Assembly (NCBI RefSeq): GCF_003334815.1
Contig: NZ_QOWO01000011.1
Origin: Escherichia coli
GTDB taxonomy: Bacteria > Pseudomonadota > Gammaproteobacteria > Enterobacterales > Enterobacteriaceae
Direction: 5' to 3' (one strand)
DNA: 64,000 nt
Position numbers: made by a program. Shown piece after piece: positions 33,001 to 36,000 of this stretch; the first letter of the stretch is position 1, and each line of letters begins with the position of its first letter.

Positions 33001-36000
33001 TTCCGCGAAATGGCACCCGCCAAAGCGACCCGCGATATGTTCCTCGATGATCAGGGCAACCCGGACAGCAAAAAATCACTCACTTCGCATCTGGCTTCCG
33101 GCACACCGGGTACGGTAGCAGGTTTCTCGCTGGCGCTGGATAAATACGGCACCATGCCGCTGAACAAAGTCGTGCAGCCCGCGTTTAAACTGGCACGCGA
33201 TGGTTTTATCGTTAACGACGCGCTGGCTGACGATCTCAAAACCTACGGTAGCGAAGTGTTGCCGAATCACGAAAACAGTAAAGCTATCTTCTGGAAAGAG
33301 GGCGAGCCGCTGAAAAAGGGCGACACGCTGGTGCAGGCGAACCTGGCAAAGAGCCTGGAGATGATTGCTGAAAACGGCCCGGACGAATTCTATAAAGGCA
33401 CGATTGCGGAACAGATCGCCCAGGAGATGCAGAAAAACGGTGGCTTGATCACTAAAGAAGATTTAGCAGCCTATAAAGCGGTCGAACGCACTCCGATAAG
33501 CGGCGATTATCGCGGGTATCAGGTTTACTCCATGCCACCGCCATCCTCCGGCGGGATCCATATCGTACAAATCCTCAATATTCTGGAAAACTTCGATATG
33601 AAGAAATACGGCTTTGGCAGCGCCGATGCGATGCAAATCATGGCAGAAGCGGAGAAATACGCCTACGCCGACCGCTCGGAATATCTTGGCGACCCGGATT
33701 TTGTCAAAGTACCGTGGCAGGCGCTGACCAATAAAGCCTATGCCAAATCTATTGCCGATCAAATTGATATCAATAAAGCGAAGCCATCCAGCGAAATTCG
33801 CCCCGGCAAGCTTGCGCCTTATGAGAGTAATCAAACTACCCATTACTCAGTGGTGGATAAAGATGGTAACGCGGTGGCGGTGACCTATACGCTGAACACC
33901 ACCTTCGGTACGGGCATTGTCGCGGGCGAGAGCGGTATTCTGCTTAATAACCAGATGGATGATTTCTCCGCCAAACCGGGCGTACCGAACGTTTACGGGC
34001 TGGTGGGCGGTGATGCCAACGCCGTCGGGCCGAACAAACGCCCGCTGTCGTCGATGTCGCCGACCATTGTGGTGAAAGACGGTAAAACCTGGCTGGTTAC
34101 CGGTAGCCCAGGCGGTAGCCGGATCATCACTACAGTGCTGCAAATGGTGGTGAATAGCATCGATTATGGCTTGAACGTCGCCGAAGCGACCAATGCGCCG
34201 CGTTTCCACCATCAGTGGTTGCCGGACGAGCTGCGTGTCGAAAAAGGGTTTAGCCCGGATACGCTCAAGCTGCTGGAAGCAAAAGGTCAGAAAGTGGCGC
34301 TGAAAGAGGCGATGGGCAGTACACAAAGCATTATGGTTGGGCCGGACGGTGAGTTGTACGGCGCATCCGACCCGCGCTCGGTGGATGATTTAACGGCGGG
34401 GTACTAAGGTTAGCGGCCCTCTTCGTGGGAAGAGGGCTATTTTGTCAGGGCAAGCCGAAGGTAGCCTTTTTTATTTCGTAATCCTGTAGATATTCTTCCA
34501 GCGGTTTTGCCGTTCCCAGAGAATGAATTTCACCACTGTCTTTATCAATAATAAAAGGTGCGTTACCAGCTAAGCGCGCGGCCTCATCTCCAGTTTCGAG
34601 AAATTCTCGTGCTTCGAAACAGAAATACCAGCCCTGGCTAAAGCGTCCATGTAGAGTAATGACGACCGGGAGATCTGCATCATCAAGGTAATGGTTCGCT
34701 TTCGCGAATGCGTCGTGATAAGTAATCATAATTATAATAAATATTATTGTTGAGTGTTATATTATTATTCCTGTGTGATACATTGAGCAAAGACGCGTTC
34801 ATCTTCGTCAAAGATATTATTAAATGCTGGTTTTGAAAAAAGTTCATCGGATAAGATATAGTCACGAAATAAGTATCTGCTAATATTTTATGATTTCTTT
34901 TTCAGAACGTCGAACGGGATTTTCTTATTTAAGATATCAGAATCTTATGATTCGGGTAAAATTCTAAATAAATCAACATGTCATTAAAATCATCATAGCC
35001 ATTAGCTATTTCGGCTAAAATAGAGACTACATGTCTTCGGTCCATCTCACTTAAGGAGTGTAGTTCCGTTGTAAGTTTTTCCATAGCTTGCACTGCTAAA
35101 TTTCGAACAAGGAATTTTCTGCTGGTAATCTCTAAAAAGATGGCATGGTTTACAATGATTTTTGTTTCCTTTTGATTATTATGAACAACTGTCCATGATT
35201 TCGTTTAAGAATGAAGAGAAATCACTAAACGAACTGAATATATTTTCTGTGCCAATATTATCTCTAATTTCAAAAAAGTTACTTTTAATGTCATAAGTAA
35301 ATATTGAAATGCTATAATCCCCGATCACTAACCGTTCTTGTAGATCAGGGTTTATGAAATCATCATTATTTCTATAAAATTCATTTACGGCAAAAAGGTT
35401 TTTAACTGAAGGTTCTGGAATCGAGAGGCTAAATAATCGTAATCCATTAACTTCGAATCCATCCATTGCTCTTAAAAAAGTAAGATAATCAGGTTGATTC
35501 TTAAAAAGAATACTAACTTCATTACATAACTTCTCCAGGCAATTAGTTGAATTAGAATTAAATTCTATTTGGATTATACTTTCAATAAATGATTCCTTGA
35601 GCGGTGCTTCAAATGGATAGTCTAAATCATTCATCATTTTTATTAATTTATTTATTTGGGTTTTAGTCATCATTTTGTGTGGTCCATAATATTTTTCATG
35701 GGAGGATAAATTGAGCCAGATGGAATGGCCCAGGGAGTGATTTTGCTTTCACCTACTAATATTCCCTTAGCTATTCGTGATTGCATGTTAGTAAAAACTT
35801 TATGATATGGTTCGTTTTCGATTAATACTAAATTTTCGAAATCATTAGTACCACCATCATCTAGAGATAGTTTATGGTGAACATTATAATTTAGAGGAAC
35901 ATTGCCCTTTCTCATTCTTAAAAGGTCTTCGGCGTTGAATCTTCCAGATGCTTCGGAGGTTTTTGCAAGTTTGATAAGAAAATTTTTTCTTACAGTTTTA

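Follow-up and report, generated by a model that had tools for sequence, protein, structure and literature searches.

We propose that yrhB is an Imm35-family orphan immunity gene, the antidote to an Hcp-Gln_amidase toxin that has been displaced from the ggt-yhhY locus of E. coli. We put the probability of this reading at roughly 0.78. We call yrhB an orphan because Gln_amidase is absent upstream of it here, though it is present in the loci of its homologues; what stands upstream instead is a spacer, then yrhD, yrhA, and yhhZ, whose product ends in an HNH domain. The first-pass annotation, which was made from the sequence alone, had raised the idea of an orphan immunity gene, and it is supported both by the Imm35 match and by the homologues that follow the C-terminal domains of polymorphic toxins.

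The gene occupies 34445..34729 on the minus strand of the window (by which we mean the whole 64,000-nucleotide stretch of E. coli DNA that we analyzed) and begins with ATG. A 94-amino-acid ORF had been placed exactly there by the first-pass annotation, and RefSeq has the identical CDS, labelled "yrhB: YrhB family protein." The protein was also described as small and acidic, which fits the computed values (10.6 kDa, pI 4.73, and 16 D+E versus 8 K+R). As that annotation said, yrhB is convergent (tail to tail) with ggt: the two genes end at 34407 (ggt) and at 34445-34447 (the yrhB stop codon), which leaves a gap of 37 nt. Within this gap is a terminator-like hairpin of ggt (34415..34438, plus strand), with a 10-bp stem and then a T-run on the plus strand only. 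The placement at an island edge holds up as well. yrhB lies at the edge of the AT-rich yhhZ-yrhA-yrhD island; its GC content is 45.6%, versus 28-34% for the spacer, yrhD, yrhA, and yhhZ, and yrhD and the 199-nt spacer lie between it and yrhA. We saw no mobile-element features around yrhB in the window; it is a single gene at a fixed chromosomal site.

A profile search against immunity families, as the first-pass annotation had suggested, gives a full-length match of YrhB to Pfam's Imm35 (PF15567): in hmmscan, residues 5-83 cover model positions 1-85 of 85, with an i-E of 4.6e-23 and 81.6 bits. YrhB retains W34, G55-N56-x-P58, and T73, which are near-invariant across the broad Imm35 family (our alignment of 73 sequences has 10 near-invariant columns, W34 and T73 among them). 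The published description of Imm35 gives an alpha+beta fold and the signature "W, [ST]" (Zhang et al. 2012, Table 3; PMC3482391), which the conserved W34 and T73 of YrhB therefore match. The AlphaFold model of YrhB has a pLDDT of 92 and the topology helix-4 strands-helix. Scans of NCBIfam and PADLOC gave no family match for YrhB, and sequence searches with YrhB, with the 73-sequence Imm35 profile, and with the toxin's C-terminal domain found no related structure in the PDB. Foldseek with the YrhB model returned nothing at E <= 0.001. There is a fold-level likeness, and only that, to PepSY/cystatin-like structures (YpeB 5boi, the designed cystatin fold 4r80, FoxB 7abw, YpmB 2gu3, and the vibriolysin propeptide 3nqz), at 10-19% identity and with the sequence-profile link absent. 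Such a likeness between a predicted model and these structures speaks neither for homology nor for a shared binding mode.

The first-pass annotation considered the immunity reading to be less explored, which is partly right. The assignment of YrhB to Imm35 is already known from Pfam, and the link from Imm35 to Tox-PL1 was published in 2012 (PMC3482391). On the other hand, UniProt lists YrhB (b3446) as uncharacterised, and our literature search found neither a paper that names YrhB an immunity protein nor a report of any experimentally tested member of Imm35.

The partner toxin is identified by the neighborhoods of the homologues. The authors who defined Imm35 tied it to the papain-fold toxin Tox-PL1 (PMC3482391), which is now Pfam's Gln_amidase (PF15644). 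Using a custom HMM, we found Gln_amidase directly 5' of YrhB homologues (53-74% identical) in 22 of 41 species-representative loci. In those loci, the toxin domain ends no more than 3 nt from the Imm35 start, with one at 18 nt. Among 23 toxin-immunity pairs, the toxin stop overlaps the Imm35 ATG by 1 nt in 20 and by 4 nt in two more. The toxins conserve an NC...H...DxQ motif. Homologues that are 62-74% identical to YrhB lie directly 3' of the Gln_amidase C-termini of CdiA proteins in Pectobacterium, Pantoea, and Yersinia and of Hcp proteins in Citrobacter and Salmonella. Overall, Imm35 homologues are immediately downstream of toxin C-terminal domains in CdiA proteins, in Hcp fusions, and in orphan C-terminal cassettes. 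The first-pass annotation had looked toward nuclease or deaminase toxins: the adjacency to toxin domains is real, and the partner is the papain-fold Tox-PL1/Gln_amidase rather than either of those. We also found further orphan Imm35 genes, downstream of CdiA or RHS genes that bear other C-termini. Two giant "multi-Imm35" proteins from the representative search were discarded as spurious, the sum of weak repeat hits.

The closest relatives are at the same chromosomal site. In Citrobacter portucalensis and in Salmonella, the ggt-yhhY site holds an Hcp-Gln_amidase gene and an Imm35 gene, and YrhB is 72-74% identical to the Imm35 proteins encoded after Hcp-Gln_amidase in these genera. The Citrobacter toxin matches both T6SS_HCP (E 1.5e-13) and Gln_amidase (E 4.2e-15) in Pfam. 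YhhZ aligns with it over residues 1-251 at 71% identity, with similarity that decays after about residue 237; past that point the C-termini are unrelated (HNH in YhhZ versus Gln_amidase in Citrobacter). At the DNA level, homology to the Citrobacter and Salmonella loci is bounded exactly by the start and stop codons of yrhB. So yrhB lies 3' of a toxin whose N-terminus is common to a Gln_amidase-bearing toxin elsewhere. Given this shared Hcp N-terminus and an unrelated HNH C-terminus, followed by yrhA, we conclude that yrhB would be the immunity gene of the displaced toxin. In Citrobacter sp. FP75, the same locus combines the Hcp N-terminus with yet another unrelated C-terminus (the third), followed by an 86-aa gene and Imm35, and we read that arrangement of sequences as an independent replicate of the swap. 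We did not find a remnant of the toxin: when the Citrobacter toxin and the genes that flank it were compared with the window by tblastn, the shared Hcp N-terminus was the only hit.

The genes upstream of yrhB look like a toxin with its own antidote. The N-terminal Hcp (TssD) domain of yhhZ, with its linker, is at 36144..36848 on the minus strand (TIGR03344, E 3.8e-34; Pfam T6SS_HCP). The C-terminal toxin domain (HNH/His-Me finger; 35670..36143, minus strand) has a weak match to Pfam HNH at residues 322-343 and has been classed in His-Me finger group 32 (PMC5714182); we infer that this is the domain that displaced Gln_amidase. yrhA (35179..35673, minus strand; 164 aa) belongs to the "YrhA family" of NCBIfam (NF038335, E 1.7e-35) and has no match in Pfam. 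The yrhA start and the yhhZ stop share 4 nt, and yrhA probably encodes the cognate immunity protein against the HNH toxin YhhZ. It is intact in this window and split by IS1 in some strains. yrhD (34929..35093, minus strand) is a small ORF, 51 aa in RefSeq, that seems to be part of the incoming low-GC cassette; it has no family match in NCBIfam or PADLOC and is unrelated to the 53-aa gene of the Salmonella locus.

Between yrhD and yrhB is an AT-rich spacer (34730..34928, minus strand; 199 nt, 28% GC), which stands where, in the relatives, the 3' end of the toxin gene abuts the start codon of the immunity gene. yrhB has thus lost translational coupling, and an obvious Shine-Dalgarno sequence is missing before it. 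A promoter of its own for yrhB probably lies in this spacer: a SELEX peak for RpoS holoenzyme has been reported in the yrhD-yrhB spacer of K-12 (PMC5493296). A scan for consensus promoters did not exceed the shuffled expectation (14 sites versus 12.2 +/- 3.2), and we do not call a promoter from the sequence.

Among 5,426 complete E. coli genomes, yrhB is present in 4,069 (about 75%); the 25% that do not have it include O157:H7 and ST131 records. Most clusters of yrhB are full length, with frameshifted and 3'-altered alleles in some lineages. Between E. coli alleles, dN/dS is 0.16-0.24 at dS of 0.23-0.31, although these ratios come from small counts (8 to 15.5 non-synonymous versus 12 to 15.5 synonymous differences), and the gene appears to be under purifying selection. 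Because of the Imm35 match (E 4.6e-23), the presence in 4,069 of 5,426 genomes, and the dN/dS of 0.16-0.24, the ORF is far beyond chance. Of the 35 columns in which toxin-linked immunity proteins show at least 90% conservation, YrhB agrees with 31, and it departs from those proteins at two positions that are invariant in 22 of 22 (E32Q and S40A). As for the toxin, the custom HMM detected no Gln_amidase domain anywhere in the 64 kb of the window, tblastn found no match on E. coli plasmids, and blastn with two diverse toxin C-terminal domains had zero matches in the 5,426 genomes, in a search that detects only DNA that is about 65-70% identical or more.

These observations suggest the following history. 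The ancestral ggt-yhhY locus would have been a type VI module in which Hcp was fused to a papain-fold Tox-PL1/Gln_amidase, with a translationally coupled Imm35 gene directly after the toxin, and C. portucalensis and Salmonella enterica still keep such a module. In the lineage of E. coli, yhhZ would have taken the place of the toxin gene; it shares the Hcp N-terminus, has a new HNH C-terminus, and would have come in on a low-GC cassette together with its own immunity gene, yrhA, and yrhD. The older immunity gene, yrhB, would have been left at the 3' edge. In this picture YrhB, a stable and acidic protein of alpha+beta structure whose fold is cystatin/PepSY-like, probably pairs one-to-one with the Gln_amidase domain and thereby obstructs the Cys-His-Asp active site of the toxin. 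The analysis shows the family, the type of partner toxin, the synteny, the exchange of the C-terminus, and the retention of yrhB under apparent purifying selection; binding, occlusion of the active site, and protection today are predictions. An AlphaFold model of a fused toxin-linker-YrhB protein was of mediocre quality (pLDDT 69.9, pTM 0.68, with the catalytic N-terminal 43 residues unmodelled) and gave weak Foldseek matches to papain-fold proteins (YopQ, AvrPphB, Josephin-like, Ssp1, SpeB, and Cif), all with E > 0.01; we regard this as consistent and do not count it as evidence.

Retaining yrhB would then make a cell resistant to this class of toxin when competitors deliver it, whether through Hcp fusions (Salmonella and Citrobacter) or through CdiA (Pectobacterium, Yersinia, Pantoea, and Pseudomonas). 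We are more tentative about whether this is why the gene persists. It is possible, at somewhat less than even odds, that yrhB is kept as cross-species armour against the Hcp-Gln_amidase toxins of Salmonella and Citrobacter, that it measurably protects E. coli including K-12 where several enterobacteria live together, and that chaperone phenotypes are side effects of a very stable inhibitor. As a rule, immunity proteins are specific, and an identity of 72-74% to the closest cognate one is no guarantee of cross-protection.

The counterweight to the orphan-immunity reading is that the sole functional paper on YrhB reports chaperone-like activity. The first-pass annotation had mentioned such a report of a heat-stable chaperone-like protein, and it does exist: Ahn et al. 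2012 (FEBS Lett 586:1044) reportedly describe a highly stable protein with this activity. YrhB might be mainly a general stress chaperone or holdase that maintains protein solubility when the temperature is high or low, with its likeness to an immunity family reflecting ancestry only. Reviews cite YrhB as a chaperone, it was included in one chaperone panel, yrhB is among the listed cold-shock-induced genes, and the RpoS-holoenzyme binding peak is upstream of it (PMC5493296). We nevertheless think this unlikely. The distribution of yrhB is patchy, with 25% of E. coli genomes lacking it, which is not the conservation of a housekeeping gene; the family is otherwise found only in toxin/immunity contexts; and YrhB has no match to a chaperone family in Pfam or NCBIfam. 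Also, enhanced solubility is generic to small, stable, acidic proteins. If YrhB is an orphan immunity protein, the chaperone-like activity would most simply be incidental to a binding protein that is acidic, soluble, and very stable.

A slightly less probable alternative is that yrhB is a non-functional relic that has no selective value and whose decay is merely pending. The cognate toxin DNA was not found in the 5,426 E. coli genomes or in plasmids, translational coupling is gone, two substitutions are at otherwise invariant positions, some alleles are frameshifted, and a quarter of genomes have lost the gene. We do think that yrhB may be drifting, because of E32Q and S40A, the lost coupling, the missing Shine-Dalgarno sequence, the altered alleles, and the 25% absence. 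But the low dN/dS, even from small counts, and the full length of most clusters argue against a relic without value, and the protein is reportedly made (Ahn et al. 2012). Furthermore, Salmonella and Citrobacter carry the toxin module at the orthologous locus. Carriers of the toxin in these genera can share the gut habitat with E. coli.

Finally, we reject as very improbable, on gene order, GC content, and independent occurrence, the idea that YrhB serves the YhhZ HNH nuclease as a second immunity protein or as an accessory factor in a yhhZ-yrhA-yrhD-yrhB operon: although yrhB is on the same strand, lies 3' of yhhZ, and co-occurs with it in 3,758 of 5,426 genomes, it is yrhA and not yrhB that overlaps the yhhZ stop codon, the GC content of yrhB is 17 points above that of yrhA and about 12 points above those of yhhZ and yrhD, there are E. 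coli strains with yrhB and without yhhZ, its relatives in other genera pair with Gln_amidase (among the loci surveyed, we saw none beside an HNH toxin), and the published partners of Imm35 are Tox-PL1 and Ntox40 (PMC3482391), so that YrhB, with a Tox-PL1/Gln_amidase partner, is not the immunity protein for its HNH neighbor.

If yrhB is the orphaned antidote that we propose, several things follow. Our findings suggest that this K-12 gene (b3446) should be re-annotated, and its link with the displaced Hcp-Gln_amidase effector supplies a partner toxin class and a specific function that can be tested. The ggt-yhhY locus would be a compact and naturally replicated case of a toxin C-terminus being replaced while the old immunity gene stays behind. 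If the protection is real, it would also be an enterobacterial case of orphan immunity that acts between species, and it would open the way to the first biochemical and structural studies of an Imm35/Tox-PL1 pair, a kind of pair with no solved structure.

How does yrhB compare with known systems? It resembles the Imm35 immunity proteins of Tox-PL1/Gln_amidase in its full-length match, its alpha+beta fold, and its conserved W and T; it differs from them in that the neighboring toxin in the window is HNH, not Gln_amidase. Among the Hcp-ET effectors of Enterobacteriaceae, Ma et al. 2017 (Virulence 8:1189) reportedly describe Hcp-ET1, an HNH-DNase with the immunity protein ETI1, and Hcp-ET5, a papain-like peptidase with ETI5. 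By architecture, YhhZ resembles Hcp-ET1 and the Citrobacter and Salmonella proteins resemble Hcp-ET5. The two types are found at one chromosomal locus and have a common Hcp N-terminus. Reviews of Hcp-ET effectors do not mention an ETI5-type immunity gene that survives as yrhB behind Hcp-ET1 in E. coli.

Orphan immunity genes and CT-immunity arrays are known downstream of cdiA, rhs, and T6SS effector genes; examples are the acquired interbacterial defence clusters of Bacteroidales and the orphan immunity genes of Vibrio cholerae. A toxin swap that leaves an antidote gene is nothing unusual for bacterial toxin loci, and yrhB is no new kind of system. Unlike those arrays, yrhB is a single gene, at a fixed site without mobile-element features. 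Like them, it has been kept 3' of a toxin with an exchanged C-terminus, its cognate toxin is undetected in the species and present in related genera, and it appears to be under purifying selection.

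The first-pass annotation described yrhB as a gene for a small acidic protein, convergent to ggt, that might be an orphan immunity gene at the edge of a toxin island. The description of the gene is exact: yrhB (34445-34729, minus strand) is an ATG-started ORF of 94 amino acids whose product has a mass of 10.6 kDa and a pI of 4.73, and the 37-nt gap between it and ggt holds the ggt terminator hairpin. The proposed role is supported by the family match, by the neighborhoods of homologs, and by a swap at the locus itself. YrhB matches the whole model of the Pfam immunity family Imm35 (PF15567; E = 4.6e-23). 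Imm35 was defined by Zhang et al. (2012) as an alpha+beta immunity protein with a conserved W and [ST]; it was tied to the papain-fold toxin Tox-PL1, and also to Ntox40, and was termed a "possible protease inhibitor" (PMC3482391). The Tox-PL1 signature is NC-H-DxQ, and the Tox-PL1 description is now carried by Pfam PF15644 (Gln_amidase; "Papain fold toxin 1, glutamine deamidase").

Given the Imm35 assignment and this published link, the immunity hypothesis for YrhB was already implicit in domain databases, so the idea that it was less explored is only partly right. On the other hand, the UniProt entry is still uncharacterized, our literature search found no paper that names YrhB as an immunity protein, and reviews describe it as a chaperone, with reference to Ahn et al. 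(2012). We see nothing that contradicts the chaperone report, but the simpler reading is that the activity reflects how stable and acidic this inhibitor protein is. An AlphaFold model of YrhB, from an alignment of 73 sequences (pLDDT 92, pTM 0.81), shows a four-stranded antiparallel sheet flanked in sequence by an N-terminal and a C-terminal helix; neither sequence search nor Foldseek found a solved relative. A model of YrhB fused to the toxin through a linker was of middling quality (pLDDT 69.9, pTM 0.68).

Homologs of YrhB at 57-83% identity occur in E. fergusonii, Citrobacter, Erwinia, Pectobacterium, Yersinia, Pantoea, Enterobacter, Serratia, and Limnobaculum. We read their contexts from precomputed Pfam matches. 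In Pectobacterium, Pantoea ananatis, and Yersinia kristensenii, the gene immediately upstream of Imm35 encodes a CdiA of 3,000-5,800 amino acids that carries TPS, Fil_haemagg_2, PT-VENN, DUF6862, and Gln_amidase domains, and one Pectobacterium genome has an orphan CdiA-CT fragment with a Gln_amidase end, followed by the Imm35 gene. In Citrobacter portucalensis, the Imm35 gene lies behind a 386-amino-acid fusion of Hcp and Gln_amidase (in our own Pfam run, T6SS_HCP, E = 1.5e-13; Gln_amidase, E = 4.2e-15). The Enterobacter homolog is an orphan that stands alone amid housekeeping genes. Limnobaculum xujianqingii has two Imm35 paralogs in a same-strand array of small genes of about 6 kb (locus L009, 2672-9231), which includes DUF596, DUF6896/MafI2, and other small genes, has no toxin gene, and looks like a polyimmunity island.

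For an unbiased survey, we scanned one genome per species, which gave 41 Imm35 loci, and searched these with an HMM made from C-terminal domains of the toxin. In 22 of the 41, the end of a Gln_amidase domain lies immediately upstream of the Imm35 start (no more than 3 nt away in 21 of them; in L055 the distance is 18 nt). Of 23 toxin-immunity pairs, 20 have a 1-nt overlap between the toxin's stop codon and the immunity gene's ATG and two have a 4-nt overlap, an arrangement that is classic translational coupling. Several of the other 19 Imm35 genes lie a few small ORFs 3' of a gene for CdiA (VENN) or RHS whose C-terminus is another one; these are orphans like yrhB. The toxin domains are unusually conserved (mean identity of 76%; motif GRTHNCVNC...GHVFNV...LDGQTG), and toxin divergence correlates with immunity divergence (r = 0.78). 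Close relatives of the toxin are named from Salmonella, Scandinavium, Erwinia, Pseudomonas, Gilliamella, Pantoea, and Xanthomonas. The expectation that homologs would sit beside toxin domains was right, but not the expected type, a nuclease or deaminase: the neighborhoods point to a papain-fold glutamine deamidase or peptidase as the cognate toxin. Separately, an Imm35-profile search of representative proteins ranked P0214, P0339, and P0219. Two giant proteins that were high in this search are artefacts, as their scores are sums of many weak repeat matches, and P0219 (554 amino acids) has two strong matches (E = 2e-14 and 1e-11) and a weak one (3e-5).

The gene order in our sequence, from ORFs and from the RefSeq annotation of identical DNA, is ugpBAECQ-yhhA-ggt, yrhB, yrhD, yrhA, yhhZ (minus strand), and yhhY-yhhX-yhhW-gntR. 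YhhZ (35670-36848, minus strand) has an Hcp/TssD domain (TIGR03344; E = 3.8e-34) and a weak HNH signature near its C-terminus, and is classed in the literature as a His-Me finger "evolved Hcp." We reject YhhZ as the cognate toxin of YrhB, as the homologs pair with Gln_amidase and yrhA overlaps the stop of yhhZ. yrhA (35179-35673, minus strand) is intact here and matches no Pfam family; because of its 4-nt overlap with yhhZ and its sole family match, NCBIfam's "YrhA family," it is the obvious candidate and presumably the cognate immunity gene of the HNH protein YhhZ. In some E. coli strains, yrhA is split by IS1. The small ORF yrhD (34929-35093, minus strand; 51-54 amino acids) has no family match and is unrelated to the 53-amino-acid gene that follows Imm35 in Salmonella. 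The GC content of yrhB is 45.6%, versus 28-34% for the spacer, yrhD, yrhA, and yhhZ.

The toxin that yrhB would have lost is found at the same locus in related genera. C. portucalensis has yhhY, a 294-amino-acid gene, Hcp-Gln_amidase, Imm35, an 83-amino-acid gene, and ggt, in that order; Salmonella enterica contigs have Hcp-Gln_amidase (truncated where the contig ends), Imm35, the 53-amino-acid gene, and ggt-yhhA-ugpQ. YrhB shares 73% identity with the Imm35 of Citrobacter and 74% with that of Salmonella, and DNA homology among the three runs from the Imm35 start codon to its stop, with unrelated flanks on both sides. YhhZ is 71% identical to the Citrobacter toxin in an alignment of residues 1-251; the similarity fades past about residue 237 and then stops, a pattern that we take as the signature of C-terminal toxin exchange. 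There is no remnant of the old toxin within the window. These comparisons indicate that E. coli carries a displaced toxin-immunity module at this locus. In Citrobacter sp. FP75, the same locus (L026, 4448-5963) has the common Hcp N-terminus, with an in-frame stop inside, and a third C-terminus without a Pfam match, followed by an 86-amino-acid gene and then Imm35. FP75 is an independent replicate of the exchange, and its C-terminus and 86-amino-acid gene could be an Hcp-borne toxin/immunity pair so far undescribed, and perhaps a pseudogene by now. The 83-amino-acid gene between Imm35 and ggt is conserved in both Citrobacter genomes (L003, 8302-8553; L026, 6302-6553); it matches no family, E. 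coli lacks it, and it could be a further orphan immunity gene.

Of 5,426 complete E. coli genomes, 4,069 contain yrhB and 3,758 contain the whole yhhZ-yrhB island; in some strains, yrhB is alone between yhhY and ggt. In O157:H7, a single DUF4225-domain gene (L002, 5842-6753) replaces the entire island, and in ST131 records the only match is to ggt. Given the replacement in O157:H7, ggt-yhhY is a hotspot for which E. coli shows four states or more. By blastn, two diverse Gln_amidase C-terminal sequences had no match in any complete E. coli genome, and a tblastn search for the toxin on plasmids found none from E. coli (the nearest was from Pseudomonas aeruginosa, at 70%). So, within DNA-level sensitivity, yrhB is a species-level orphan.

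yrhB appears to be retained under purifying selection: dN/dS between divergent E. coli alleles is 0.16-0.24 (dS 0.23-0.31), although the counts are small, and dN to other genera is 0.21-0.31, with dS saturated. YrhB matches 31 of the 35 columns with a conservation of 90% or more among 22 toxin-linked immunity proteins; it deviates at Q32 (elsewhere E), at A40 (elsewhere S), and at two positions in common with Citrobacter. Variant alleles include one of 112 amino acids with an altered 3' end that runs into ggt (L021, 7001-7339) and frameshifted ones whose Imm35 match is split over two frames (L023-L025, about 6985-7267). As for expression, genomic SELEX found a binding peak for RpoS holoenzyme in the K-12 yrhD-yrhB spacer (34730-34928 here; PMC5493296), and our promoter scan of the window did not confirm a promoter there. 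yrhB has been listed as cold-shock-induced, with a weak Shine-Dalgarno sequence and an AT-rich 5' UTR; in our sequence, the 5' region is AT-rich and has no clear Shine-Dalgarno sequence.

Sequence comparison establishes the family of YrhB, the type of its partner toxin, the synteny, and the exchange of the toxin's C-terminus, and it indicates that yrhB is kept by purifying selection. If it works as an immunity protein, YrhB would bind Gln_amidase directly and occlude the active site, and it might still give protection across species today. One paper credits an E. coli yhhZ-yrhAB cluster with the conversion of methionine to cysteine (PMC3309015), which appears to be a name collision with yrhA/yrhB of Bacillus subtilis, the species cited there for the function. 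The novelty of our finding is low, because orphan immunity genes are well known as a kind and the Imm35 label is in the databases; what it offers is a concrete new annotation for a K-12 gene and a clean, testable case of toxin replacement.
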